Assembly (NCBI GenBank): GCA_041179705.1
Contig: JBEGSW010000056.1
Span: 1,796-65,795, forward strand
Direction: 5' to 3'
Source: Bacillota bacterium
Lineage (GTDB): Bacteria > Bacillota > Bacilli > Paenibacillales > JBEGSW01
Length of the DNA: 64,000 nucleotides
Of the stretch, positions 15,300-47,603 are shown one piece after another (positions within the stretch are counted from its first letter, which is position 1; each line of letters begins with the position of its first letter). The notes beneath the pieces were generated by a model that was not told the origin of the DNA, made no database searches, and was given only the letters and a program-made list of their open reading frames with translations. The position numbers were made by a program, and so were the translations under genes.

Positions 15300-16916
15300 A
15301 TGTCTAATTTAGTAACCATTTTTGATACAACATTACGAGATGGCACACAAGGCGAAGGCATTAGTTTATCTGTTGAAGATAAATTGAAAATCGCTGTTAA
15401 ACTTGATGCGCTAGGAGTATCTTATATCGAAGGCGGATGGCCTGGTAGTAATAACAAGGACATCGAATTTTTTAATCGCATTCAAAGCATTAAACTAAAT
15501 AACGCGAAAGTTACTGCATTTGGAAGTACGCGTCGTAAGTTTACTGATCCCGCTCAAGATGCCAACCTAAAGGCCATTCTTGATTGTGGTGTGAAAGTCG
15601 CTACGATTTTCGGTAAATCGTGGGATTTCCAAGTTACGATGGCGTTACAGACAACACTTGAAGAGAATCTAGCGATGATTTATGACTCTGTCCATTATTT
15701 GACACAACAAGGACTGGAAGTCATTTATGACGCAGAACATTTCTTTGATGGCTATAAGAATAATCAGGAATATGCTTTACAGACAATCAAAGAAGCAGAG
15801 CGTGCCGGTGCGAAATGGGTTGTTCTATGCGATACAAATGGCGGTTCATTACCAGCGGAAGTCAGCCGAATTACGAAACACGTCATTGAAAGTATTCAGT
15901 GTCCTGTCGGCATCCACGCACATAACGATTGCGAACTCGCTGTAGCCAATAGTATTGCTGCTGTCGAGGCAGGGGCTAGACAAGTTCAAGGTACAATCAA
16001 TGGCTTCGGGGAAAGATGCGGAAACGCCAACTTGTGTTCAATTATTCCTTCTCTTCAACTCAAGTTAAAATACGACATCATTTCTTCTGAACAACTTTCC
16101 ACATTAACCGGGGTTGCTAGATATGTTAGTGAAATCGCTAATGTGCACTTCCCAGTTAATATGCCGTATGTTGGACATGCTGCGTTTGCCCATAAAGGTG
16201 GGATTCATGTGTCAGCAATCTTAAGAGATTCGAAGACATATGAACACATTACACCTGAATTAGTCGGTAACAAACAGCGTGTACTTGTATCTGAATTAGC
16301 AGGTCAAAGTAATCTTGTGTTCAAAGCACAGGAACTAAACCTTGATTTTAATTTAGAGAACGAACAAACCAAAGCAATTATTAATAAAATTAAAGACTTA
16401 GAACATGAAGGCTATCAGTTCGAAGGGGCAGATGCTTCACTAGAGTTACTCCTTCGCGGAATGAATGGTTCAACAACAGAACTATTTAAACTCGAGTCCT
16501 TTAAGTTACTCGTTGAGAAACATGCGGATCGTCCAGTGCTTTCCGAAGCAATTGTTAAGTTAAATGTCAGTGGACAGAGCGTTTACACCGTAGCTGAAGG
16601 CAACGGACCAGTGAACGCCTTAGATAATGCGCTAAGAAAAGCGCTAATTACGTTTTATCCAGAAATTGAATCTATGCATCTCTCAGACTATAAAGTTCGT
16701 GTTATTAATGAAACTGACGCAACTGCAGCGAAAGTTCGTGTACTTATCGAATCTTCCAATCTTGATGATTCTTGGAACACTGTCGGCGTTTCTGAGAACA
16801 TTATCGAAGCGAGTTGGCAAGCTCTCGTTGACAGTATTCGATATGCCTTAATCGGAAAAGATATTGCTGCTACAATCGAGACAACGAAACAATCAATCGG
16901 ACTTCAAAACCACTAG
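15300..16916 (+). CDS. cimA: Citramalate synthase (CimA / IPMS-related family)
   Basis: IFDTTLRDGTQGEGISLSVEDKLKIAVKLDALGVSYIEGGWPGSNNKDIEFF is the CimA-type N-terminus; 538 aa with a C-terminal regulatory domain. RBS TAGGAGG. Possible extended -10 TGATATAAT near 15239-15247. Confidence 0.85.
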   Translation: MSNLVTIFDTTLRDGTQGEGISLSVEDKLKIAVKLDALGVSYIEGGWPGSNNKDIEFFNRIQSIKLNNAKVTAFGSTRRKFTDPAQDANLKAILDCGVKVATIFGKSWDFQVTMALQTTLEENLAMIYDSVHYLTQQGLEVIYDAEHFFDGYKNNQEYALQTIKEAERAGAKWVVLCDTNGGSLPAEVSRITKHVIESIQCPVGIHAHNDCELAVANSIAAVEAGARQVQGTINGFGERCGNANLCSIIPSLQLKLKYDIISSEQLSTLTGVARYVSEIANVHFPVNMPYVGHAAFAHKGGIHVSAILRDSKTYEHITPELVGNKQRVLVSELAGQSNLVFKAQELNLDFNLENEQTKAIINKIKDLEHEGYQFEGADASLELLLRGMNGSTTELFKLESFKLLVEKHADRPVLSEAIVKLNVSGQSVYTVAEGNGPVNALDNALRKALITFYPEIESMHLSDYKVRVINETDATAAKVRVLIESSNLDDSWNTVGVSENIIEASWQALVDSIRYALIGKDIAATIETTKQSIGLQNH

Positions 16917-16920
16917 TACA

Positions 16921-16978
16921 AACATAAATAAGGGATTCCACAGTAGATTTTCTACCGTTGGAATCCCTTATTTATGTT
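16921..16978. repeat. Perfect 20-bp inverted repeat (terminator-like hairpin without a clean U-tract)
   Basis: AACATAAATAAGGGATTCCA (16921-16940) is the exact reverse complement of TGGAATCCCTTATTTATGTT (16959-16978), with an 18-nt loop. The right arm overlaps the 3' end of the convergent redoxin gene. Confidence 0.6.
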
Positions 16979-17504
16979 TATCAATGACTTCTCTAAATTG
17001 TGCATAGGTTCGTAATCCTGCCATAGTCGCAACAACCTGTCCATTTGGATTCACGAGATACGTTGATGGATACCCAACTACCTGATACGACTCAGTTGCT
17101 TGCCCGGTTACGTCAAATACAATTGTAAACTTTAAATCATGCTTTAATACAAATGCACGCGCCTTAGCCTCATTATCTACATGTGCAGCATTTATCCCAA
17201 TGATTTCAATCTGATCTCCGTAATGCTTGTACAGTTTAACTAAATCAGCAGACTCTTCCTCACATGGACCACACCAAGATGCCCAAAAATTAACGAGCGT
17301 CCAACTTGATGTCTTGCCACCAATCGTCCGCACATTACCCTGCCAATCCTTCAACTGTAAGACTGGGGCAGTAATGATAGTATCTGTTTTATTAGAAGAA
17401 AGAAGATTTTTGGATGTAGAATCAAATTCATTTCTATCCATAAGCGTAAATAAAAGCATGCCAGCAATCAAAATGGTTACAACGATAGTCGAAGCTTTTC
17501 TCAT
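16968..17504 (-). CDS. Membrane-anchored thiol-disulfide oxidoreductase (TlpA/ResA-like redoxin)
   Basis: N-terminal TM helix, then NFWASWCGPCEEE (CxxC redoxin motif). Confidence 0.8.
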   Translation of the reverse strand: MRKASTIVVTILIAGMLLFTLMDRNEFDSTSKNLLSSNKTDTIITAPVLQLKDWQGNVRTIGGKTSSWTLVNFWASWCGPCEEESADLVKLYKHYGDQIEIIGINAAHVDNEAKARAFVLKHDLKFTIVFDVTGQATESYQVVGYPSTYLVNPNGQVVATMAGLRTYAQFREVIDKHK

Positions 17505-17556
17505 TACCCGCCTCCCTCTACACTAATTATAGCAATTTTATGCTGCGTTCCAACAT

Positions 17557-17584
17557 AAAAGACTACCCCTTGGGTAGTCTTTTT
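17557..17584. terminator. Terminator after the exonuclease gene
   Basis: AAAAGACTACCC pairs with GGGTAGTCTTTT around a 3-nt loop, with A/T runs on both sides. It abuts the stop at 17583. Confidence 0.7.
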
Positions 17585-18317
17585 AACGACTTAAATGGGC
17601 GTAAAGATCACCCAACGTAATTACTTGTCTCTCTTGCATGATTGCAATGAATTTCCCCCAAAGCTTGGCTGTCATAATTGCGTCTTCGAGTGCATGATGA
17701 CGATTCGTAATGGGAACACCGTATTTTAATAATAATTCATCTAATTCAAAATTGGTTCTCGTAGGTTCTAGCCATTTGGCAATCATCATTGTATCAAGGA
17801 CGCGATGCGTTAGCGTGGTCCGTGATGTCTTCCAAAGCGCATTGTTCAAGAATTGTTTATCGTGTCCCGTACCATGCGCAATCAACACTCTTCGTTGCAC
17901 GAATTGAAAAAAATCTCTCAGGGAGTCAATGAGTGAGGGAGCTTGAACAGCCATTTCATTCGAAATCCCAGTCAGTTTCTCGATGTGCGCTGGAATGAGT
18001 CGATTTGGATTAGTTAACGTATGAAACTGTTCCTCTTCAATCATTTGCCCACCACGAACGCCAACACCACCAAACGAGATGATTTCATCACCTTGATTCA
18101 CAAAAAAACCTGTTGTCTCAAGATCAAACACAACAAATTCAATTTCATGAAGTGGCGTGTCAAACAATTCGATTTTTCGTTGTTGTTTCATAACAGATCG
18201 TATAAATGCCATTTGTTGCGCTTTAGGGTCTCCGAGAGCGGAGGCGAATGCAGGAGTCACGCCACCCATCTTGTACAGGTTCCAAAGCCGGCTACCTGCC
18301 GAGTGATTTCCATCCAT
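17583..18317 (-). CDS. DEDDh 3'-5' exonuclease domain protein (DnaQ/epsilon-like)
   Basis: FVVFDLETTGF (ExoI), HGTGHDKQFL (ExoII region) and HHALEDAIMTAKLW (ExoIII, H-x4-D), preceded by an N-terminal extension of about 60 aa. Starts 5 nt after the DUF294 gene. Confidence 0.8.
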   Translation of the reverse strand: MDGNHSAGSRLWNLYKMGGVTPAFASALGDPKAQQMAFIRSVMKQQRKIELFDTPLHEIEFVVFDLETTGFFVNQGDEIISFGGVGVRGGQMIEEEQFHTLTNPNRLIPAHIEKLTGISNEMAVQAPSLIDSLRDFFQFVQRRVLIAHGTGHDKQFLNNALWKTSRTTLTHRVLDTMMIAKWLEPTRTNFELDELLLKYGVPITNRHHALEDAIMTAKLWGKFIAIMQERQVITLGDLYAHLSR

Positions 18318-18322
18318 ACGCG

Positions 18323-19390
18323 CTACCCTCCTAATTTATTAATTCGCTTCTGGACGAATTTTTGAAGTTTCCGTCCAGCATGAAGCGCCATTTTCAACTG
18401 TAATTTATCAGACTTGGATAATTCCCGCAATGGAATCATACCAGAAGTCACATAATGATTATCAACGATTTCAAATGTAGTCTGTGCTCGCAAATAAAGG
18501 ACTGTCCGTAGCGCATCATACCACATTGTCATTTGTTGCTCGGTTATTTCACCTTTCATATACAGCGCCATAATTCGCTTAACCGATGAGGTCTCAGTGA
18601 CACCTGATAGGATGGCAACTAAACGAATACTGTTAATAATCGGTATATACCCACCATATTTTATATCTACAGAGCCCGCATGTTCCCCATAAGGTTCAAC
18701 CAGTAATTGACCGAACACATTTAATACAATCTTATGTCTTAATGTATTATTCAACATCGCCTGCAAAATTATTGGATGTGTATCAGCATATGTGACAATG
18801 TGACTTTGAAGTAATTCAACAAGCTCATTATTACCAGCAACACACCTCAAATCAGCAGCAATTAGTAAATATCGAATATTTTCCCAGTTGGGTTCAAGTA
18901 GCCATTCATCTATGGTTTGTATCCAAGCTGAATATGGTTTACACCAACGATCATTATCAGCACCAACCTCACCATCACATGGCGGATAACCAATTTCCTT
19001 TAAATATTCAACAACTCGTTTGCCCAATGTACAAAAATAATTGCGCACCTCAGGCGTAACTGCTACGAATCGATCATCATAAATAATCGCATTATCTTGA
19101 TCGCTCCAAGGTGTCTGTTCTTCCCTTCCGCCACTACCCACTAAAATAAATGCATAGGAAACAGAAGGAGAAGCCATCCCCTCGGAGAGCAACTTCTGCT
19201 CTGCCAAAAAGATGGCTCTTTTGATGAAACTATCATGAATGAAATTGATTTCATCCGAATACGTCATAATCATTTGGAAGGAAGGGTTTCGTTGGAGTTG
19301 ACGATGCCAACTATCCCGAATCTGCCTCAACTGCGCAGTTGAGTTACACGCTAAGATGTCATTTGCAATGTCAGAAGTTTCGGGGAACAT
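18323..19390 (-). CDS. DUF294-type nucleotidyltransferase with DUF294_C-like substrate-binding domain
   Basis: Pol-beta-type NTase motif GSGGREEQTPWSDQDNAIIYD followed by a helical C-terminal region. It lacks the cNMP/CBS sensor domains I recall in longer members of the family. RBS AAGGAAAGGAGGG; 31 nt downstream of amt. Confidence 0.7.
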   Translation of the reverse strand: MFPETSDIANDILACNSTAQLRQIRDSWHRQLQRNPSFQMIMTYSDEINFIHDSFIKRAIFLAEQKLLSEGMASPSVSYAFILVGSGGREEQTPWSDQDNAIIYDDRFVAVTPEVRNYFCTLGKRVVEYLKEIGYPPCDGEVGADNDRWCKPYSAWIQTIDEWLLEPNWENIRYLLIAADLRCVAGNNELVELLQSHIVTYADTHPIILQAMLNNTLRHKIVLNVFGQLLVEPYGEHAGSVDIKYGGYIPIINSIRLVAILSGVTETSSVKRIMALYMKGEITEQQMTMWYDALRTVLYLRAQTTFEIVDNHYVTSGMIPLRELSKSDKLQLKMALHAGRKLQKFVQKRINKLGG

Positions 19391-19421
19391 TCGAAACCCT
19401 CCTTTCCTTAGATTTTAGGAA

Positions 19422-20708
19422 TTAATTTGAAGCTTTCTTCATTTGTTCTGGGTATCCATACGTACCATGTTCAGATAAATCCAAACCGATAATTTCTTGT
19501 TCTTCTGTTACACGAAGACCTACTGTCTTCTTAATGATGAATAAGAATACGAAGGATAATACAAATGCATAACCACCAGCAAGAAGTACACTTTCAGCTT
19601 GAACAATTAATTGATCAAAGCCACCACCGTAGAACAACCCTGCTTTACCTGTAGCTAATTTTTCAGCTAATTCTGGTGTTGCGAAGAAACCATTCGCTAA
19701 AGTACCAAGAATACCTGCTGTACCATGAACGGATAATGCAGCAATTGGATCATCTAACTTGAACTTTTCGAACATCTTCATGGAGAAGAATACCAAGATT
19801 CCAGCTAAAATACCAATTACTACCGCAGCCCATGGCTCAACGAACGCACAAGATGCAGTAATTGCAACTAAACCAGCTAATGCACCATTCAACATTGTAG
19901 GTACATCTGCTTTACCTGTTACAGCCCAAGCAACTAGTAAAGCAACAATTGCACCTGCACCAGCCGCTAATTGCGTGTTGAAAGCAACATAACCGAAGAA
20001 GCCTTCTCCACCAAATCCATTAACACCTAAAGTAGAACCTGCGTTAAATCCAAACCAACCTACCCATAAAATCATTACTGCAAGTGCAGTATAAACTTGG
20101 TTATGACCATTAATTTGGTTTGCGGAACCATCTTTATTGTATTTACCAATTCGAGGTTTCAATAAAATTGTTGCTGCTAGTGCTGCCATTGCACCTGTTA
20201 AGTGAACAACTGTTGAACCCGCAAAATCTTGCGCACCTTCCGCATATAAGAAACCATTTGCATTCCAGATCCAGTGAGCAATCACTGGGTAGATGAAAGC
20301 AGAGAATAATACTGTAAAGATTAAGTATGGTGCTAATTTAGAACGTTCTGCAAAACCGCCCCATGCGATTGTTAATGAAATTGTTGCGAACGCTAATTGG
20401 AATAAGAAGAAAATCGATGTTGGTAGTGAAGAATCTTCTGCAAGATCAATAAATGAATTAGAAGGATCAAAGAAGAAATCACCGATACCAATAAAACTAT
20501 TACCGCCTGATGCAAATGAAAAACCATAACCTACTGCCCAGTAAATCAAACTAGCTAAGCCAATTGTGAAAATTGTCTTACCTGCAACGTGTCCCGCATT
20601 TTTCATACGAGTTGAACCTGTCTCAAGTAAAATAAAGCCTGCTTGCATGAAAATTACCAAAACTGCTGCAATCATTACCCAAACTGCATTTAAATGCCAC
20701 CACTCCAT
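19422..20708 (-). CDS. amt: Ammonium transporter (Amt family), no adjacent PII gene
   Basis: MEWWHLNAVWVMIAAVLVIFMQAGFILLETG, AGSTVVHLTGA and FNAGS motifs with about 11 TM segments. ATG at 20708 with GAGGAG 8 nt upstream (the ORF track used the GTG at 20717). Confidence 0.9.
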   Translation of the reverse strand: MEWWHLNAVWVMIAAVLVIFMQAGFILLETGSTRMKNAGHVAGKTIFTIGLASLIYWAVGYGFSFASGGNSFIGIGDFFFDPSNSFIDLAEDSSLPTSIFFLFQLAFATISLTIAWGGFAERSKLAPYLIFTVLFSAFIYPVIAHWIWNANGFLYAEGAQDFAGSTVVHLTGAMAALAATILLKPRIGKYNKDGSANQINGHNQVYTALAVMILWVGWFGFNAGSTLGVNGFGGEGFFGYVAFNTQLAAGAGAIVALLVAWAVTGKADVPTMLNGALAGLVAITASCAFVEPWAAVVIGILAGILVFFSMKMFEKFKLDDPIAALSVHGTAGILGTLANGFFATPELAEKLATGKAGLFYGGGFDQLIVQAESVLLAGGYAFVLSFVFLFIIKKTVGLRVTEEQEIIGLDLSEHGTYGYPEQMKKASN

Positions 20709-20755
20709 CGTTACCACTCCTCAATAAAATTTATTTAGTAAGTCACGTTCTTTTG

Positions 20756-20772
20756 TGTAAGGATACATAACA
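20756..20772. promoter_or_regulatory. GlnR/TnrA-type box (TGTNA-N7-TNACA)
   Basis: TGTAAGGATACATAACA is a perfect match to the 17-bp consensus. It sits at about +14 to +30 relative to the predicted amt promoter. Confidence 0.6.
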
Positions 20773-20792
20773 CAAGAAGAACTATTACCGTT

Positions 20793-20822
20793 ATTATATA
20801 TGCAGGTTTTACGTTTTGACAA
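20793..20822 (-). promoter_or_regulatory. Predicted sigma-A promoter of the amt-DUF294-exonuclease operon
   Basis: Minus strand: TTGTCA (20822-20817), 18-nt spacer, TATAAT (20798-20793). Confidence 0.5.
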
Positions 20823-20891: not shown

Positions 20892-20908
20892 TGTTAGTTT
20901 TTATTACA
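20892..20908. promoter_or_regulatory. Second GlnR/TnrA-type box in the divergent intergenic region
   Basis: TGTTAGTTTTTATTACA is a perfect TGTNA-N7-TNACA match. It lies upstream of a plus-strand TTGAAA-18-TATAAT promoter (about 20921-20951) for the yugP-like gene. Confidence 0.5.
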
Positions 20909-20992
20909 TGTTTAAACGATTTGAAATCGCCCCCTCCATTGACGTATAATTTAATTAAATCAGCACATATACATTACTAACTTATTTGGAGG

Positions 20993-21694
20993 ATGATGCT
21001 CTTTATGTTCTTTTTCCACCCTATTTTAGACCCATTGATTATGGTTGCTTTCGGTCTAACCATCTGGGCACAGTTCCGTGTTAAAGGTACCTTTAATAAA
21101 TTCAGCCAGGTACCCACATCGACTGGCTTAACTGGCTACCAAGCTGCTCGTTACATGCTTGATTCGAATGGTCTACATGACGTTCCGATTGAAGCTGTTC
21201 CTGGCAGATTGACGGATCATTATGACCCAATGAAACGCGTCGTTCGCTTATCCGAGCCTGTTTATTATGAAAGTTCAATTGCCGCAGTTTCGGTTGCTTG
21301 TCATGAAGTTGGTCATGCCATTCAACACAAGGTGAGTTACCCGATGCTTGTTGCACGCCATCGCATTTTCCCGCTCGTTAATATCACTTCTAGCGTTGCA
21401 CCTTGGTTGATTATGGCTGGTCTTTTATTCCAACAGAACACTTCCTTACTTGGTCTAGGCATCGTATTCTTCACAGGAGCAGTGTTGTTCCAAGTTATTA
21501 CGTTACCTGTAGAATTCAATGCTTCCAGTCGGGCGAAACAGTTGATGGTTGCCGAAGGATATATTTCGAACGATGAATCCGCAGGTGTTTCCAAAGTATT
21601 GAATGCAGCTGCGTTGACGTATGTGGCAGCCGCATTAATCTCCGTTCTTGAACTCCTAAAATATGTGATGATATTCTTGGATCGCCGCGAATAG
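20993..21694 (+). CDS. YugP-family zinc metallopeptidase (membrane)
   Basis: MLFMFFFHP..., TDHYDP, VACHEVGHAIQH (HExxH), and C-terminal TM segments are collinear with remembered YugP. The true start may be the second ATG at 20996. Confidence 0.8.
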   Translation: MMLFMFFFHPILDPLIMVAFGLTIWAQFRVKGTFNKFSQVPTSTGLTGYQAARYMLDSNGLHDVPIEAVPGRLTDHYDPMKRVVRLSEPVYYESSIAAVSVACHEVGHAIQHKVSYPMLVARHRIFPLVNITSSVAPWLIMAGLLFQQNTSLLGLGIVFFTGAVLFQVITLPVEFNASSRAKQLMVAEGYISNDESAGVSKVLNAAALTYVAAALISVLELLKYVMIFLDRRE

Positions 21695-30134: not shown

Positions 30135-30149
30135 CATATGATTGGCGTT

Positions 30150-30333
30150 AAAAACCCGCAATTGCCGTTCGATTCAGGCTGTTTCATGAACCCGCTCAAG
30201 CAGGTGGGTTATCTCAGAATTGCATTTGAAGTCCCTTCAGGAGGGCTGGTCAGCAGCATATTCATCTTGAAATCCCGTGAAACAAACATTGGTTCAAAAC
30301 AAAAGGAATCTTTACGAACACTGCAGGATTTAT
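30150..30333 (-). ncRNA. ssrS: 6S RNA (SsrS; Bacillus 6S-1/bsrA-like)
   Basis: About 184 nt between a strong promoter and a terminator. The 5' end AAATCC...GTTCG pairs with the 3' end CGAAC...GGGTTT. Further closing-helix pairs are GATTC/GAATC and GTTTTGAACC/GGTTCAtgAAAC, with an asymmetric interior. GTTTTGAACCAATG and ACCCACCTGC...GGGTTCATG match my memory of B. subtilis 6S-1. The ends are approximate. Confidence 0.7.
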
Positions 30334-39194: not shown

Positions 39195-40496
39195 TTAATC
39201 TTCTTTTTTCTTGATTGGTTTAACACTTACACCTGTCGACTCTTCAAAGTCAAACAAGGTAGTCGGAATGTCTGCGAAACGCTCGAGATCATTATATGCT
39301 GGAATTCCGTGATAAGCCATATCTAAGCCCTCATCTTCATCATGAATCGCAGCACGATAACCAACTGTTAATTTGCAAACTTTTGCTATTAAATACCCTG
39401 CTAGTAAGCCCCAAACGACAACAACACCAGCGCCTAATAATTGCACCGATAGTAATTCAAAACTACCTGTTGTGAATAAACCATCTTTAATATCAAACAA
39501 GCCAACCGCAATTGTACCAAATACACCATTGAAACCGTGGACAGCTACTGCGCCAACGGGATCATCAACCTTTAAATTATCAACGAACAACGTCGCATAA
39601 ATGACAATAATACCAGCAATTAAACCAATAATAATTGCGCTCCATTGACTTACAAATGCGCAACCAGCTGTAATCGCAACTAATCCAGATAATACGCCGT
39701 TAATTGTCATACTCGGATCAGCAACACCAAACTTCTTCATCGTTACCAACATCGCAACCGTGCCACCAGCTGCGCCGGCAAGCATTGTGTTTAAAGCAAT
39801 ATTAGCTAAATCAACATGTGAAGCATCTAATGTGCTTCCTGCATTAAAGGCAAACCAACCAAACCATAAAATAAATGCACCAGATGACGCTAAAGGAATA
39901 TTACTCGGTGCAAATACATTTGCACTTCCATCAGAGTTAAATCGACCACGACGCGCACCTAACAGCTTTGCCATAGAAAATGCAGCAAATCCACCAACAG
40001 CATGAATCGTAGCGGATCCAGCGAAATCTTTCATACCCAAGTCCGCTAACCAGCCACCGCCCCAAACCCAGTGTCCAGATAATGGATATACAATTAAAGT
40101 AATTAACGCTGCTGTAACAACGTACGCTTTAAAATTCATTCGTTCTGCAACCGCACCAGAAACAATCGATATACACGCTACTGCAAAGCCAAGCTGGAAA
40201 AGAACAAAAGCTGCAGGAGGTAATTGGAGTCCTGTATCAATATTCCCAGGTGCACCAAACAATGAAGTACCAATAATCCCCCATTTGTCTTCCCCAAACA
40301 TAATCGCAAAACCAGCAACCCAAAATGCTAGTGCACCTATCGTTAAATCAACAAAGATTTTCATCGTTACGTTAACTGCATTCTTTGTGCGAACAAACCC
40401 TGCTTCTAATAGGCTGAAACCACCTTCCATGAAAATAACCATAGCGGCAGCAAGAACAACCCATATTGTATTTAAAGAAATTGTCAATTGTTCCAT
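39195..40496 (-). CDS. amtB: Ammonium transporter AmtB/NrgA
   Basis: LAAAMVIFMEGGFSLLEAGFVRTKN, AGSATIHAVGG and FNAGS motifs. Starts 4 nt after glnK. Confidence 0.9.
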   Translation of the reverse strand: MEQLTISLNTIWVVLAAAMVIFMEGGFSLLEAGFVRTKNAVNVTMKIFVDLTIGALAFWVAGFAIMFGEDKWGIIGTSLFGAPGNIDTGLQLPPAAFVLFQLGFAVACISIVSGAVAERMNFKAYVVTAALITLIVYPLSGHWVWGGGWLADLGMKDFAGSATIHAVGGFAAFSMAKLLGARRGRFNSDGSANVFAPSNIPLASSGAFILWFGWFAFNAGSTLDASHVDLANIALNTMLAGAAGGTVAMLVTMKKFGVADPSMTINGVLSGLVAITAGCAFVSQWSAIIIGLIAGIIVIYATLFVDNLKVDDPVGAVAVHGFNGVFGTIAVGLFDIKDGLFTTGSFELLSVQLLGAGVVVVWGLLAGYLIAKVCKLTVGYRAAIHDEDEGLDMAYHGIPAYNDLERFADIPTTLFDFEESTGVSVKPIKKKED

Positions 40497-40500
40497 TTCA

Positions 40501-40860
40501 TTAACCCTCCTTGTTCACGAGATCATCGATATCATCATCGGAATGACCCGTTCGAATGCTGTACGCTTCAAGGATTGGATATACATAAATCTTTCCATCG
40601 CCATTCTCACCAGTCTGACAAGACTCCACGATTGCTTTAATTGTCGGCTCGACCATATAATCGGACAAGACGATTTCAACTTTAATTTTTGGATGGAGCG
40701 CAACTTGGTAATTTTGACCGCGATACGTACCTTTTGTGTCTTTTTGTTTACCTCGTCCAACAATTTGCGAAACAGTGAATCCACCAACACCAATTCGCTT
40801 CAATTCTTTAATGGTATCAGTTAATTTTTCTGGGCGAATAATCGCTTCAATCTTCTTCAT
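40501..40860 (-). CDS. glnK: PII nitrogen regulatory protein GlnK/NrgB
   Basis: MKKIEAIIRPEKL..., T-loop GRGKQKDTKGTYRGQNY, DGKIYVYPI. ATG at 40860 with GGGGG upstream (the ORF-track start at 40872 is trimmed). Confidence 0.9.
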   Translation of the reverse strand: MKKIEAIIRPEKLTDTIKELKRIGVGGFTVSQIVGRGKQKDTKGTYRGQNYQVALHPKIKVEIVLSDYMVEPTIKAIVESCQTGENGDGKIYVYPILEAYSIRTGHSDDDIDDLVNKEG

Positions 40861-40878
40861 GACAACCCCCAAAATTAA

Positions 40879-40895
40879 TGTTAATTAAACTTACA
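40879..40895. promoter_or_regulatory. GlnR/TnrA-type box at the glnK-amtB promoter
   Basis: TGTTAATTAAACTTACA is a perfect TGTNA-N7-TNACA match, at about +5 to +21 relative to the predicted promoter. Confidence 0.6.
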
Positions 40896-43964: not shown

Positions 43965-44552
43965 TTAGTCTTTATCGACTAAATCACGTTTAATGTATTT
44001 CTCTAAGATTTGCGTGACAGAGAATGCTGTATGAGCCAAATCAATGTTCTCATACGTATGTTTGCAACTCGACATATACGCCATATCCTCATCATAATGA
44101 TTCAAATGCTTCTGAAGAACTGCTTCATCGACATTTAATTTCTTCTGACGTTCAAGGATTAAATCGCGTGACACATGAAGGAATATACGTTTCACTTTCT
44201 CTCCATATTTGGCCTTTAGTGTCTTTGTTCCTTTCGAATTAAGAACAACATAGATGAAATCGTGCTCTTTGAACATTCGCTCAATGTCAGCACTCTTCAC
44301 CCCATAGTAGTCACCATCAATTTCTGTATGTTCAATAAACGCATCCTCTGCAATGGCACGCTCGAATGCTTCACGTGTGACAAAGTGATAATCTTGCCCG
44401 TCTTCTTCAGCAGGACGAGCTTTTCTTGTCGTATATGACAGTACTTTAGGAAGTTCTAGCGTGGAGCCAACCATGTCTGCCACTGTCTTACGGCCCGAAC
44501 CATCCGGTCCCGTAAAGATGAAAATTGTTTCTGATTCTTTAAGTCTATACAT
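43965..44552 (-). CDS. Guanylate kinase-like protein with an atypical P-loop
   Basis: GMP-binding region SYTTRKARPAEEDGQDYHFV and EHTEIDGDYYG are Gmk-like, but the P-loop is GPDGSGRKT, with Arg at the canonical Walker A Lys position. ATG at 44552 after GGAGGGGG. Confidence 0.7.
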   Translation of the reverse strand: MYRLKESETIFIFTGPDGSGRKTVADMVGSTLELPKVLSYTTRKARPAEEDGQDYHFVTREAFERAIAEDAFIEHTEIDGDYYGVKSADIERMFKEHDFIYVVLNSKGTKTLKAKYGEKVKRIFLHVSRDLILERQKKLNVDEAVLQKHLNHYDEDMAYMSSCKHTYENIDLAHTAFSVTQILEKYIKRDLVDKD

Positions 44553-44643
44553 GGATATCCCCCTCCACAATTGAACAAAATATGAAAATTCAGAAAGTTA
44601 TGAAGCCATTATATCACAGCGTTTTTCGACGTGTTAGCTAAAA

Positions 44644-45726
44644 TTACATCTTTGAGAGAATGGTTTCCAAGGTCGAGCGATCGCTCGCTTTGACCAACTC
44701 GACTAACAGCTGTTTCGCTGCATCATAATCATCTGTATGCAAGATAGATGCCGAAGTATGAATATATCTTGCACATACGCCAATAACCGCTGAGGGAACA
44801 CCACTTCCACTTGTATGGACTGAACCAGCATCCGTTCCACCAGGGGATACAAAATATTGATAAGGTATTTTATGAGTTTCAGCCATATCCCGGATAAATT
44901 CAACCATTCCCCGATTTGTCACCATTGTTCGATCTAAAATACGAAGCAATACACCTTTACCCAATTGTCCCATACTACTTGAATCACCATGTGCATCTCC
45001 TGCAGGACTACAGTCGAGCGCGTAGAACAAATCAGGTGCAATTGTGTGGGCAGCTGTCTCAGCACCTCGTAAACCAACCTCTTCTTGAACCGTAGCACCA
45101 CAATAGAGTGTGTTTGGTAACGTTGATGGTCCGCCTGACTTATATATTTCTTCGACAAGCTCTATAGCTAGACCAACACCATATCGATTGTCCCAGGCCT
45201 TAGCCATTATCTTTTTAGGATCTGCAAGTGGTGTAAATGTGCTAGCAGGTACAACTTGTTGACCAGGAATAACACCTAACATGCGAGCGTGCTCTGCATT
45301 CTCCGCACCAATATCAATGAATAACTGATCGATGTTCGAAAATCCAGGGTTATCAGATTTCGTCAAATGAGGGGGAATTGAGCCAATGACACCTGGTAAT
45401 TCTCCCTTCTCGGTAATAACTCTAACCGTCTGAGCTTGCAGCACTGCGTTCGACCACCCTCCGAGTGCGTGGAATTTCAGCGTTCCATTCGGACGGATTT
45501 GCGTTACCATAAAGCCTACTTCATCCATGTGGCCGGCGACCATCACTTTGGGTCCAGCTGAATCGCCCTCAAGGACTGCAAATGAACTTCCAAGACGATC
45601 TCTTACAAAACGGTCTGTGTATTTCCCCATTTGCGCTTCCATGTATTGTCTTATTGAACGTTCGAAACCTGATGTGGCAGGCATCTCCGTTAATGTCTTA
45701 AATAATTGCATCGTATGTTCATTCAT
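44644..45726 (-). CDS. M42-family aminopeptidase (YtoP/YsdC-like)
   Basis: TEMPATSGFE, VAGHMDEVGFMV, VQEEVGLRGA, GGTDAG. Confidence 0.85.
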   Translation of the reverse strand: MNEHTMQLFKTLTEMPATSGFERSIRQYMEAQMGKYTDRFVRDRLGSSFAVLEGDSAGPKVMVAGHMDEVGFMVTQIRPNGTLKFHALGGWSNAVLQAQTVRVITEKGELPGVIGSIPPHLTKSDNPGFSNIDQLFIDIGAENAEHARMLGVIPGQQVVPASTFTPLADPKKIMAKAWDNRYGVGLAIELVEEIYKSGGPSTLPNTLYCGATVQEEVGLRGAETAAHTIAPDLFYALDCSPAGDAHGDSSSMGQLGKGVLLRILDRTMVTNRGMVEFIRDMAETHKIPYQYFVSPGGTDAGSVHTSGSGVPSAVIGVCARYIHTSASILHTDDYDAAKQLLVELVKASDRSTLETILSKM

Positions 45727-46907: not shown

Positions 46908-47603
46908 CTACTCCTTCTCGTTGTCTAGATGATCCTCCAAATAGTGCCCCATAGCCTCTGTCAATTCTTTCGCATCGCTAGTAATGCGATCAAATCGATT
47001 TTGGCGAATCGCTGATTTGTCGACGAGCGATCCCCCTATTCCAACCGCATAACAACCAATCTCCATAAAACGTTGAATGTTATCCGCATTCACACCACCA
47101 ACTGCCACCATCGGAATATGTGATAACGGTCCTTGTAATTCTTTAATATAAGCCATTCCAATTGAGGCACTTGGGAAAATTTTCACTGCAGGTGCACCGG
47201 CTTTCCAAGCCTTTACGATTTCTGTCGGCGTCAATGCACCTGGATAGATCGGTACGTTCTGCTCTAAGCAATAATGAATAACTGCCTCATCCATGTTCGG
47301 TGTGACAATAAAACCCGCCCCCGCTGCAATGGCTTTTTGAGCGTCTTCTAAATCCACGACAGTTCCAGCTCCTATCCACATCTGTTCCCCCATCTTGTCC
47401 TGCAAGAGGCGTATGGAATCAGTTGCTCCAGGTGTGTTCATTGTAATTTCCATGACACGAATGCCACCTTCAAAGAGGGCATCTGCAAGATTACGGATTT
47501 GTTTGGTCTCTACACCACGAACGATAACGATAATTCGGGTTTGATCAAGTAAGGTTAAACCGGATTTCGCATCCAACTTATTCACACTCCTTTTAAATAA
47601 CAT
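46908..47603 (-). CDS. eda: KHG/KDPG aldolase
   Basis: IVIVRG, IRVMEITMNTPGA, GAGTV, FIVTPN, VKIFPA-like (VKIFPS). It has a C-terminal extension of about 20 aa. Confidence 0.85.
   Translation of the reverse strand: MLFKRSVNKLDAKSGLTLLDQTRIIVIVRGVETKQIRNLADALFEGGIRVMEITMNTPGATDSIRLLQDKMGEQMWIGAGTVVDLEDAQKAIAAGAGFIVTPNMDEAVIHYCLEQNVPIYPGALTPTEIVKAWKAGAPAVKIFPSASIGMAYIKELQGPLSHIPMVAVGGVNADNIQRFMEIGCYAVGIGGSLVDKSAIRQNRFDRITSDAKELTEAMGHYLEDHLDNEKE

Follow-up and report, generated by a model that had tools for sequence, protein, structure and literature searches.

In the GlnD–PII(GlnK)–AmtB system, a nucleotidyltransferase (NTase) and a removing hydrolase govern the shut-off of an ammonium transporter by nitrogen status, and GlnD unites its NTase, HD and ACT sensor domains in one protein. 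To our knowledge, Firmicutes have no GlnD.

In Bacillales, amtB–DUF294–dnaQ operons have been recorded (Groot Kormelink et al. 2012, BMC Genomics, PMC3412718, Table 1 footnote d). The association of the three genes described below is therefore not new, although the arrangement was only footnoted there and the two extra genes were neither analysed nor given a function. According to the tables of that paper, genomes with such operons are mostly without glnK, which is present where a further amtB exists; Anoxybacillus, several Geobacillus strains, Paenibacillus polymyxa and Brevibacillus brevis carry the operon with no glnK listed. Many Bacillales run a PII-less Amt without any NTase–exonuclease module, so no substitute for PII is strictly required.

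Proteobacteria have comparable pairs (COG2905/DUF294) beside ActP or SSS transporter genes, for example Pseudomonas aeruginosa PA3232–PA3235, P. putida pp_0354/pp_0353, Shewanella Sama_1525 and P. stutzeri Psest_0349. In P. putida, the regulator ErdR controls both this operon, directly, and actP. In this species, loss of the exonuclease pp_0353 resembles loss of the transporter ActP-I, each deletion impairing growth on pyruvate, whereas deletion of pp_0354, on the NTase side, gives no phenotype. The P. putida study cites transposon-fitness data by Rand and colleagues in which pp_0354 and pp_0353 both matter at 5 mM acetate. RB-TnSeq data also report a gene neighbouring a DUF4212–SSS transporter as cofit with that transporter. 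DUF294 proteins and their exonuclease partners have no known biochemical activity.

The amt operon and its conservation

The window, 64,000 nucleotides from a metagenome-assembled Bacillota genome (Paenibacillales), contains the same three genes on its minus strand. Their positions and their gaps of 31 and 5 nt are those claimed by the first-pass annotation (Table 1), which also gave the trio a single promoter and a single terminator. Candidates for both were found. The promoter-like site is a consensus match only, because such sites are not enriched in the region (10 found against 11.5 expected). The terminator, missed by the scan and recovered through folding, is a strong hairpin beginning at the final base of the exonuclease stop codon. 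Co-transcription of amt, DUF294 and exonuclease genes is plausible. The next gene, encoding a redoxin, has its own promoter-like site (17553..17526), as does a divergent yugP-like gene in the intergenic region that it shares with the amt operon.

Table 1. Features of the amt operon, with positions in the window
Feature	Position	Strand	Remarks
amt (Amt-family ammonium transporter)	19422..20708	-	428 aa; Pfam and NCBIfam matches; PII gene not adjacent
DUF294 nucleotidyltransferase, short, sensor-less; NTase domain and DUF294_C helical domain	18323..19390	-	355 aa; Pfam
DEDDh (DnaQ-like) 3'-5' exonuclease	17583..18317	-	244 aa; RNase_T and PRK07740
Promoter-like site of the amt operon, TTGTCA-18 nt-TATAAT	20793..20822	-	11/12 positions match; consensus match only
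Intrinsic terminator hairpin, 12-bp stem, 3-nt loop, U-rich tail	17557..17583	-	folding: -16.7 kcal/mol, z = -4.0
Proximal TnrA/GlnR box, TGTTATGTATCCTTACA on minus strand	20756..20772		perfect TGTNAN7TNACA; between -10 hexamer and amt RBS
Distal TnrA/GlnR box, TGTAATAAAAACTAACA on minus strand	20892..20908		perfect TGTNAN7TNACA; divergent intergenic region

The distal TnrA/GlnR box lies directly upstream of the -35 element in the promoter-like site of the yugP-like gene, and a further perfect box (40879-40895) precedes the glnK gene of the window. These boxes, two at amt and one at glnK, are absent from the first-pass annotation. Of 64 related loci, 62 have a perfect box ahead of amt, where shuffled sequences would give 0.6, and several have a second upstream box about 135–150 bp from the first. 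Because the boxes are conserved, the operon is likely to be nitrogen regulated, as had been suspected.

Synteny in relatives, set earlier as a test of the grouping, was followed in 80 metagenome loci fetched by motifs specific to this DUF294 subfamily. The triad is complete in all 59 related loci with both flanks readable; an Amt1-type amt lies directly upstream of DUF294 in 65/65, the exonuclease directly downstream in 68/68 (median spacing 11 nt, many overlaps of -1), and no glnK occurs within about 6 kb in any of 84. This conservation partly reflects common descent, since most loci share a wider block: yugP-like peptidase, amt, DUF294, exonuclease, redoxin and a citramalate/2-isopropylmalate synthase-like gene. 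Two triads with DUF294 proteins only 28–33% identical also keep the gene order, and one of them (L096) is surrounded by quite other genes, as far as its flanks can be read. The three genes are not neighbours by chance. It shares with the published operons its three genes, the GlnR/TnrA sites and a tendency to occur without a glnK for that amtB.

The second Amt of the window (39195-40496) does have the PII partner attributed to it: the PII gene precedes it at 40501-40872 (likely true start ATG 40860) and encodes the T-loop GTYRGQNY. One regulator per Amt is the pattern seen both in the window and in the published tables (PMC3412718).

The transporter and the two enzymes

The amt gene starts at ATG 20708, 8 nt past the RBS GAGGAG (the ORF tool had GTG 20717). 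Its product, Amt1, matches Pfam Ammonium_transp (1.6e-116) and TIGR00836 (416.8 against a cut-off of 343.3), and is 56–88% identical to its triad orthologs and 39% identical to the GlnK-linked Amt of the window. Its short C-terminus, ...GLDLSEHGTYGYPEQMKK, has the form usual in the DUF294-linked Amt subfamily, as judged by motif conservation across orthologs, with ...SEHGxYGYPEQMKK invariant. The best PDB sequence matches are the sensor Amts Ks-Amt5 (1.8e-72) and Sd-Amt1 (1.2e-64), AmtB standing at about 1e-51. These sensors resemble the locus in linking an Amt module with a signalling enzyme in the cytoplasm; however, the partner of Amt1 is a separate protein, and neither Amt1 nor any of the 68 orthologs tested has the published receptor signature QX6EX15NX2D[F/T]X54-60TX2[S/T].

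The 355-aa protein matches DUF294 (1.1e-33) and DUF294_C (1.6e-28) in Pfam, where no CBS or cNMP domain was found; no sensor domain can be recognised in this short form, and its identity to the protein of any named species is at most 46%. The NTase motif GSGGREEQTPWSDQDNAIIYD occupies residues 85–105, and G85, S86, G88, R89, E91, S96, D97, D99 and D180 are invariant. With the AF2 model (pLDDT 91.5), the only strong Foldseek matches are the AR and AT domains of GlnE and Legionella DrrA/SidM (E 3e-8 to 8e-8, TM ~0.6), which cover the whole fold of NTase plus helical domain; aminoglycoside NTases follow at about 1e-2, RNA tailing enzymes have a probability below 0.25, and PDB 7bxo (MNT–HEPN oligo-AMPylation) is among the weak matches. 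Profile searches against the PDB detected no sequence similarity to GlnE or DrrA; 6 of 30 family members match Pfam GlnE weakly. A survey of HEPN domains places DUF294_C together with the C-terminal domains of GlnD and GlnE. By its modelled structure, the NTase belongs to the GlnE/DrrA protein-nucleotidylylating group, in support of the kinship to GlnD claimed at first. Both GlnE and DrrA AMPylate a Tyr of a protein, but neither uses an exonuclease. In GlnE the AMP is removed by a second NTase-like domain; the DrrA mark is removed by SidD, which has a PP2C-like fold.

The exonuclease matches RNase_T (9e-33) and the NCBIfam equivalog PRK07740 (301 bits against a cut-off of 261). It has a helical N-terminal extension of about 55 aa and the invariant residues D65, E67, D153, H207/H208 and D212. 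The nearest folds to its AF2 model (pLDDT 87) are the exonuclease domains of PolC, DinG and epsilon (DNA proofreading), which are nearest by sequence too; its substrate may therefore be a nucleic acid. We know of no DEDDh enzyme that removes a nucleotide from a protein.

The first-pass annotation had mentioned DUF294–exonuclease pairs beside acetate/cation symporters, and inspection of distant loci confirms that they are real. In 10 distant plasmid or chromid DUF294 loci, a DEDDh exonuclease lies downstream in nine and an SSS-family symporter upstream in seven, with no adjacent transporter in three; further pairs adjoin an MFS gene and an SSS gene. Four unrelated transporter families thus precede the pair: Amt, ActP/DUF485, SSS/DUF4212 and MFS. 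Long DUF294 proteins from distant loci, which carry cNMP, CBS, Cache or PAS sensor domains, nearly always precede a DEDDh exonuclease or are fused to one, and they mostly lie downstream of a sodium:solute symporter gene. A natural CBS–DUF294–RNase_T fusion exists, and in PHP–Cache–PAS–CBS–DUF294 proteins another phosphoesterase takes the place of the DEDDh partner; such architectures resemble that of GlnD. In the Proteobacterial pairs, the NTase core is homologous (23–30% identity, with E-values as low as 1e-32); an RNase_T-type exonuclease comes after it, and a transporter gene stands upstream. These pairs differ in that the NTases have about 600–650 aa with cNMP-binding and CBS domains, whereas the 355-aa protein of the triad consists of the core and a short helical N-terminus, the transporter is a sodium:solute symporter and the exonuclease belongs to DEDDh subfamily PRK09145 instead of PRK07740. 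In Alphaproteobacteria the set is larger, with a small uncharacterised protein, a response regulator and an exonuclease of 560–690 aa.

Possible roles of the NTase–exonuclease pair

As the preferred, though tentative, explanation, to which we assign a probability of about 0.4, the NTase ('writer') and the DEDDh phosphodiesterase ('eraser') would form a regulatory pair of the co-encoded Amt in a nitrogen-regulated operon. We infer the chemistry, target and direction of regulation as follows. A 'stop' status of nitrogen or energy would lead the NTase to attach AMP, UMP or possibly a short nucleotide chain, as an inhibitory mark, to a hydroxyl on the cytoplasmic face of the transporter or on a tightly associated factor, with ...SEHGxYGYPEQMKK as a candidate site; the exonuclease-fold enzyme would hydrolyse the phosphodiester, releasing 5'-NMP and re-opening transport. 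The minimal NTase of MNT–HEPN toxin–antitoxin systems similarly puts one to several AMPs on its partner's Tyr, and a short chain of this kind would suit a 3'-5' exonuclease as a natural substrate; the triad differs in lacking a HEPN RxxxH toxin and in its context of transport, not defence. If the proposal is true, the pair plays the part for Amt1 that GlnK plays for the second Amt, namely to prevent futile NH3/NH4+ cycling, and the triad is the Bacillales sensor-less version of the module that follows ActP, SSS and MFS transporter genes in Proteobacteria. The likeness to GlnD–PII–AmtB would then extend to an NTase of the same structural group and a removing hydrolase governing Amt shut-off, in an operon of the nitrogen regulon. 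However, the triad operon has no PII gene, many triad genomes have no PII, the remover has a DEDDh fold instead of an HD domain, and ACT domains are absent. In favour of the proposal are the conserved triad with its tight gene spacing, the conserved boxes, the recurrence of the pair beside other transporters, the fusions, the GlnE/DrrA-like fold, the P. putida genetics and the distribution of glnK. Against it are the kinship of the exonuclease to proofreading domains, the distant loci that lack an adjacent transporter, the PII-less Amts of Bacillales that have no such module and the missing sensor domain of the short form. Since transporters of four unrelated families precede the module, one common non-transporter target is also more parsimonious than direct recognition of each transporter.

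Alternatively, control might act on RNA, the NTase tailing the 3' end of the transporter mRNA or of a regulatory RNA and the exonuclease trimming it, which would set the expression of the co-encoded transporter and not its activity. The closeness of the exonuclease to nucleic-acid 3'-5' exonucleases suits this idea, mRNA degradation was speculated upon by the P. putida authors, and the published genetics fit equally well. We nevertheless consider it doubtful: the DUF294 fold matches protein AMPylators and poly(A) or terminal uridylyl transferases only at a probability <0.25 and TM ~0.15, no RNA-binding domain was detected in the domain searches and the operon contains no Rfam element. It is also unlikely that DUF294 synthesises a small nucleotide, linear or cyclic, that gates the transporter and is degraded by the exonuclease, by analogy with GGDEF/EAL or Orn. 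DUF294 does lie C-terminal to Cache, PAS, CBS and cNMP sensors like other output domains, it is paired with or fused to a phosphodiesterase, some DEDDh enzymes degrade short oligonucleotides and the genetics are compatible; but no cGAS/DncV-type or other messenger synthase is among the structural matches listed for DUF294, the NTase has no PADLOC match and Amt1, with its short C-terminus, shows no evident receptor domain.

The original idea of a nucleotidylyl transfer and removal module fits the NTase–exonuclease fusions and the published genetics; its suggestion of GlnK as a target does not stand as well. Nucleotidylylation of the T-loop Tyr, as by GlnD, would control the other Amt or nitrogen signalling, and fold and Pfam annotation tie DUF294 to the GlnD/GlnE group in a window that encodes a GlnK with this Tyr. 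It is nonetheless highly improbable, because several triad genomes, namely the four groups named above, have no glnK listed (PMC3412718); glnK is missing near all 84 related loci, and in Proteobacteria the module accompanies symporters for acetate and other solutes. The persistence of the wider block, the similarity of the exonuclease to proofreading domains and the distant pairs without a neighbouring transporter could instead mean that the two enzymes are unrelated passengers with a housekeeping nucleic-acid role, such as DNA end processing or repair, in a vertically inherited block. This we regard as improbable: the triad outlives the block at L096, the pair independently came to follow all four transporter types, fusions to sensor domains mark a signalling module and the mutant phenotypes track those of a transporter.

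A conserved operon with a PII-less amt

The trio described in the first-pass annotation, a PII-less amt followed by genes for a DUF294 nucleotidyltransferase (NTase) and a DEDDh exonuclease, was recovered at the same place. An ORF listing of the window fills 17583-20717 with three minus-strand ORFs, separated by gaps of 31 nt (amt to DUF294) and 5 nt (DUF294 stop to exonuclease start), and the DUF294 start is preceded by AAGGAGG. The ORF lister starts amt at GTG 20717; the first-pass start is the better call because ATG 20708 sits 8 nt past the Shine-Dalgarno sequence GAGGAG. The gene next after the exonuclease has a separate promoter-like site of its own. An Rfam search of the window found no element inside the operon; the only match above the gathering score was a 6S/SsrS RNA gene (85.5 bits, E = 1.8e-15) elsewhere in the window.

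Features of the operon, its control sites and other loci of the window
Feature	Position	Strand	Remarks
amt (Amt1)	19422-20708	-	PF00909, match positions 1-399 of 399, 1.6e-116; TIGR00836, 416.8 bits (cut-off 343.3)
DUF294 NTase, 355 aa	18323-19390	-	PF03445 (1.1e-33), then PF10335 (DUF294_C, 1.6e-28), above curated cut-offs
DEDDh exonuclease, 244 aa	17583-18317	-	RNase_T, 9e-33; NCBIfam equivalog PRK07740 ('hypothetical protein') passed
Promoter-like site TTGTCA-18-TATAAT	20822..20793	-	Consensus match only; region not enriched in such sites
Terminator-type hairpin	17557-17583	-	12 bp, -16.7 kcal/mol, z = -4.0, U-rich sequence after
TnrA/GlnR box, proximal	20756-20772		Upstream of amt; perfect TGTNAN7TNACA
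TnrA/GlnR box, distal	20892-20908		Upstream of amt; perfect TGTNAN7TNACA
TnrA/GlnR box of glnK	40879-40895		Perfect; directly upstream of TTG 40872 (ORF lister start)
Promoter-like site TTGAAA-18-TATAAT	20921-20950	+	Strong; at the yugP-like gene
yugP-like Zn metallopeptidase gene	20993-21694		Divergent
Second amt (Amt2)	39195-40496		Preceded by glnK
glnK (PII)	40501-40872		T-loop GTYRGQNY
TnrA/GlnR-type box	44632-44648		Perfect
Guanylate-kinase-family gene	43965-44570	-	
6S/SsrS RNA gene	30149-30332	-	

A search with the DUF294 alignment (A1) yielded 80 metagenome loci which, with four more, made up the 84 loci analysed by tblastn. A single-protein DUF294 scan of genome contigs led to one locus, in Paenibacillus ginsengarvi; metagenome contigs, plasmids and exact look-ups provided the broader sampling. 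Among the matches listed in a search for exonuclease homologues, Paenibacillaceae dominate, and Geobacillus and Bacillus were not reached. An Amt1-type amt lies immediately upstream of DUF294 in all 65 evaluable loci, and the exonuclease gene immediately downstream in 68 of 68 related loci. Synteny of the complete triad in relatives, on which the first-pass proposal depended, is present in 59 of 59 evaluable loci. Compared with the window proteins, the median identity is 69% in Amt, 41% in DUF294 and 61% in the exonuclease. Between the DUF294 and exonuclease genes the median spacing is 11 nt, and -1 overlaps are frequent. Most loci also keep a wider block comprising a yugP-like Zn peptidase, a redoxin and a citramalate/2-isopropylmalate synthase-like gene. 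The locus-search motifs were subfamily-specific and, this block being so widely shared, common descent adds to the conservation of the triad.

In most Paenibacillaceae-like loci, as around 15300-17504 in the window, the order within the wider block is yugP-like peptidase, amt-DUF294-exonuclease and then redoxin. The redoxin is of the membrane-anchored AhpC/TSA type and sometimes comes after other genes, the LeuA/citramalate-synthase-like gene is divergent, and so is the yugP-like peptidase in most related loci.

The genes of two short DUF294 proteins that are much more distant (28% and 33% identity) likewise lie between amt and an RNase_T gene. One of these distant triads (L096) has entirely different neighbouring genes; the contig of the other (L095) is too short for informative neighbours. 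Both keep TnrA/GlnR boxes and the Amt tail ...SEHGx[YS]GYPE, and their Amts share 56-62% identity with Amt1 and only 36-41% with Amt2. The C-terminus GLDLSEHGxYGYPEQMKK is invariant among DUF294-linked Amts, the tail peptide of Amt1 being written as ...GLDLSEHGTYGYPEQMKKASN. The identities and the shared tail indicate that the Amts linked to DUF294 are a distinct, slowly evolving subfamily.

The amtB-DUF294-dnaQ arrangement is not new, having been footnoted already in 2012. Genomes carrying it are mostly without glnK, which is present where a second amtB exists (Groot Kormelink et al., PMC3412718), and the window follows the same one-regulator-per-Amt pattern as that published table.

Predicted nitrogen regulation and the two Amt proteins

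A perfect TnrA/GlnR box was detected upstream of amt in 62 of the 64 related loci having sufficient upstream sequence, against 0.6 expected from shuffles, which firmly places the operon in the predicted GlnR/TnrA regulon. Control of amtB by GlnR/TnrA has been inferred for Bacilli in general (Groot Kormelink et al., PMC3412718). The proximal box of the window is situated between the predicted -10 element and the amt RBS, at what looks like a repressor-type position. The box of most relatives is found approximately 104-128 nt ahead of the amt start codon, a location compatible with TnrA-type activation. The glnK-amt2 operon is on the minus strand, and glnK probably starts at ATG 40860 (MKKIEAIIRPEK...), so that its box would lie about 20-35 nt upstream, like the proximal box of amt1.

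The distal box abuts the -35 element of the promoter-like site of the divergent yugP-like peptidase gene, and this gene may consequently be nitrogen-regulated as well. Another perfect box (44632-44648) lies 62-78 nt upstream of the guanylate-kinase-family gene and overlaps an M42 aminopeptidase gene at its end; with about two boxes expected in the window, chance may account for it. Boxes at 47078, 48196 and 57218 were rejected as operators, being intragenic and chance-compatible (2 expected). A MerR-family gene beside amt in one related locus (L003) was rejected as tnrA, with a TnrA model score of 22.7 against a cut-off of 140 and weak ZntR-like matches.

No PII ORF adjoins amt1, and glnK was found at any position in none of the 84 related loci. 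Amt1 and Amt2 share only 39% identity. In the PDB, Amt1 is best matched in sequence by two ammonium receptors, Ks-Amt5 and Sd-Amt1 (PDB 6eu6, 8qj3). Despite these matches, a role as ammonium sensor was rejected, as the published N1/N2 signature of the ammonium receptor (AmR) class, QX6EX15NX2D[F/T]X54-60TX2[S/T] (Pflueger et al. 2024), is absent: a regular-expression search gave no match in Amt1, Amt2 or any of 68 orthologs. Amt1 retains the Q-X6-E element and the Asn matching N269 of Sd-Amt1, and carries Thr at the positions of both Asn45 and Asp48. Its pore residues, comprising the Trp/Ser recruitment site, the Phe gate and the twin His, are complete (FQLAF, HWIW, DFAGSTVVH, WFGFNAGS and SVHG, from the sequence and its alignment to Ks-Amt5 and Sd-Amt1). 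With an intact pore and no receptor signature, Amt1 most probably works as a transporter.

Amt1 and its orthologs are nearer in sequence to ammonium-sensor Amts than to AmtB, and the N1/N2 ligands Asn45 and Asp48 are missing in all of them. The orthologs do have the Q-X6-E element in common with Amt1. N269 of Sd-Amt1 narrows the cytoplasmic exit; the equivalent Asn is common to Amt1, its orthologs and Amt2.

The DUF294-exonuclease pair

The NTase has only the DUF294 and DUF294_C domains; a domain search detected neither the cNMP-binding/CBS sensor domains of the COG2905 architecture nor the HD uridylyl-removing and ACT domains of GlnD proper. Across 30 sequences, residues G85, S86, G88, R89, E91, S96, D97, D99 and D180 do not vary. 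They include the pol-beta-type catalytic motif (G-S ... D-x-D and a third acidic residue: G85, S86, D97, D99, D180), and the catalytic site is therefore intact. A search of PDB sequences with DUF294, as single sequence or A1 profile, found no relative. With the AlphaFold model of the NTase (pLDDT 91.5, pTM 0.89), Foldseek gave only four strong PDB matches (TM about 0.6, and 0.60-0.64 for 1v4a, 6yx5_B and 3k7d): the N-terminal domain of GlnE (1v4a, 3.3e-8), DrrA bound to Rab8a (6yx5_B, 5.4e-8) and the C-terminal domain of GlnE (3k7d, 6.4e-8, and a further match at 8.4e-8). Aminoglycoside NTases were the next class at about 1e-2, and RNA tailing enzymes and poly(A) polymerases had probabilities below 0.25. 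Six of 30 family members matched Pfam GlnE weakly (best E-value 1e-4), and a HEPN survey grouped DUF294_C with the C-terminal domains of GlnD and GlnE.

Across 28 exonuclease sequences there is no variation in the residues of Exo I (FDLETTG; D65, E67), Exo II (HGxGHD; D153) and Exo III (HHALED; H207/H208, D212). Close relatives keep a helical extension of about 55 aa at the N-terminus, which the distant triads do not. The nearest folds and sequences are PolC, DinG, Cas-associated DnaQ and epsilon exonuclease domains. The protein failed every true dnaQ/epsilon model (TIGR01406, 87.4 against 222.7; PRK05711, 78.3 against 196), which rejects an assignment as DNA polymerase III epsilon. An anti-phage defence system (CBASS, MNT-HEPN) was also rejected, as PADLOC gave no family for the NTase and the exonuclease matched generic DEDDh models only.

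HMMER against 1.84 billion cluster representatives detected 2,932 DUF294 clusters, with proteins of about 350, about 490, 630-650 and 970-1060 aa; distant long forms carry cNMP-binding/CBS domains. A tblastn search of plasmids and chromids gave 63 records, of which ten annotated regions were inspected. A 3'-5' exonuclease gene lies just downstream of DUF294 in nine of them; the exception is Skermanella, where the downstream 'hypothetical protein' is not RNase_T. In alphaproteobacteria a small unknown gene, in some cases together with a response-regulator gene, precedes that of the exonuclease. DUF294 directly follows a sodium:solute symporter in seven regions (ActP+DUF485 or SSS+DUF4212, often with acs), and an adjacent transporter is absent in the other three. 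The first-pass annotation had mentioned such pairs beside acetate/cation symporters, and a P. aeruginosa record deposited as plasmid bears this out: its order DUF485, cation/acetate symporter, cNMP/CBS protein, 3'-5' exonuclease is that of chromosomal PA3235-PA3232. Other arrangements are cNMP-CBS-DUF294, RNase_T and an MFS transporter, in that order, and SSS, a Cache protein, a cNMP-binding protein and a natural CBS-DUF294-RNase_T fusion (P0331). In PHP-Cache-PAS-CBS-DUF294 proteins a different phosphoesterase is fused. Judged by these architectures, neighbours and fusions, DUF294 is an output domain of signalling proteins, nearly always partnered with a phosphodiesterase, and the combinations of sensor and phosphodiesterase recall the layout of GlnD (NTase, HD, ACT). 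We rate the triad as a version of the DUF294-DEDDh module that is linked to Amt and has no sensor, within GlnD/GlnE-type logic.

Possible function of the pair

A literature search found no biochemical characterisation of DUF294, COG2905 or amtB-linked exonucleases. Genetic data exist for Pseudomonas putida KT2440, in which pp_0354 (CBS-domain) and pp_0353 (RNase_T exonuclease) form an operon bound directly by ErdR, which also regulates actP. The same paper notes that the PAO1 homolog of pp_0354 adjoins actP and yjcH, from which we infer that pp_0354 is a DUF294 protein. Deletion of pp_0354 had no phenotype, and deletions of pp_0353 and of actP-I each impaired growth on pyruvate. Loss of the hydrolase resembling loss of the transporter, with loss of the transferase silent, is the pattern predicted by an inhibitory writer and an activating eraser. 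Transposon-fitness data of Rand and colleagues, cited in the P. putida paper, show that pp_0354 and pp_0353 both matter at 5 mM acetate. In RB-TnSeq of Shewanella and P. stutzeri, a gene neighbouring a DUF4212-SSS transporter is cofit with it; its label, 'COG2905 (RNAse T domain protein)', is ambiguous between the NTase and exonuclease genes.

We favour, with a probability of about 0.4, a mechanism in which the NTase would put an inhibitory nucleotidylyl mark on the cytoplasmic face of the transporter or on a tightly bound factor, and the DEDDh enzyme would take this mark off. Removal would be chemically close to exonuclease action, the phosphodiester being attacked and a 5'-NMP leaving, with a protein hydroxyl rather than a 3'-OH as the leaving group. 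For Amt1, the pair would provide rapid shut-off as GlnK does for Amt2. The transporter-linked transfer and removal module of the first-pass annotation is retained here as the best reading. GlnK, one of the targets it suggested, is given very little credence since triad genomes often are without glnK.

The wider proposal, that DUF294 and DEDDh proteins constitute an unrecognised reversible protein-nucleotidylylation switch acting directly on transporters (Amt, ActP, SSS, MFS) and replacing PII/GlnK in many Bacillales as a guard against futile ammonium cycling, is possible and at present doubtful. Direct modification is made harder to accept by the four unrelated transporter families served and by the lack of an evident sensor in the short form; moreover, we know of no DEDDh de-nucleotidylylase. 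A role at the RNA level, with 3'-tailing and trimming setting expression, would suit the relatives of the exonuclease and has been speculated upon by earlier authors, but it is at odds with the NTase fold and seems unlikely to us. Synthesis and subsequent degradation of a small-nucleotide messenger appears quite unlikely, and it is improbable that the two enzymes are unrelated housekeeping passengers.

PII is the textbook control of Amt channels, and in many Firmicutes Amt genes occur without GlnK and GlnD is absent. A conserved, apparently nitrogen-regulated pair beside exactly such PII-less Amts is a tangible candidate for the control that is missing there. In Proteobacteria this pair is found behind symporters for acetate, pyruvate and other solutes, and there the exonuclease mutant is like the transporter mutant. 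Working out one case would probably account for a family comprising about 2,900 protein clusters and provide the first function for DUF294. If the inhibitory-mark mechanism is true, the DEDDh exonuclease fold would have a novel use, and transporters would be subject to post-translational control of a new kind.

Several variants of the pair carry additional proteins. On alphaproteobacterial plasmids or chromids, a conserved 162-174-aa protein without Pfam match is inserted between DUF294 and the exonuclease (L090, L093) and might serve as an adaptor or as a target. A single-domain response regulator occupies the same interval in L089 and L090, and the exonuclease of all three loci is a protein of 560-690 aa with a C-terminal RNase_T domain. 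Membrane-receptor-like proteins of the (PHP)-Cache-PAS-CBS-DUF294 type, about 970-1060 aa long, are represented by P0387 and P0406 (L098, L099), P0391 and P0398. Some of them have an N-terminal PHP phosphoesterase in place of a separate DEDDh partner, and in L098 and L099 the receptor-like protein is preceded by a 200-aa protein without Pfam match.
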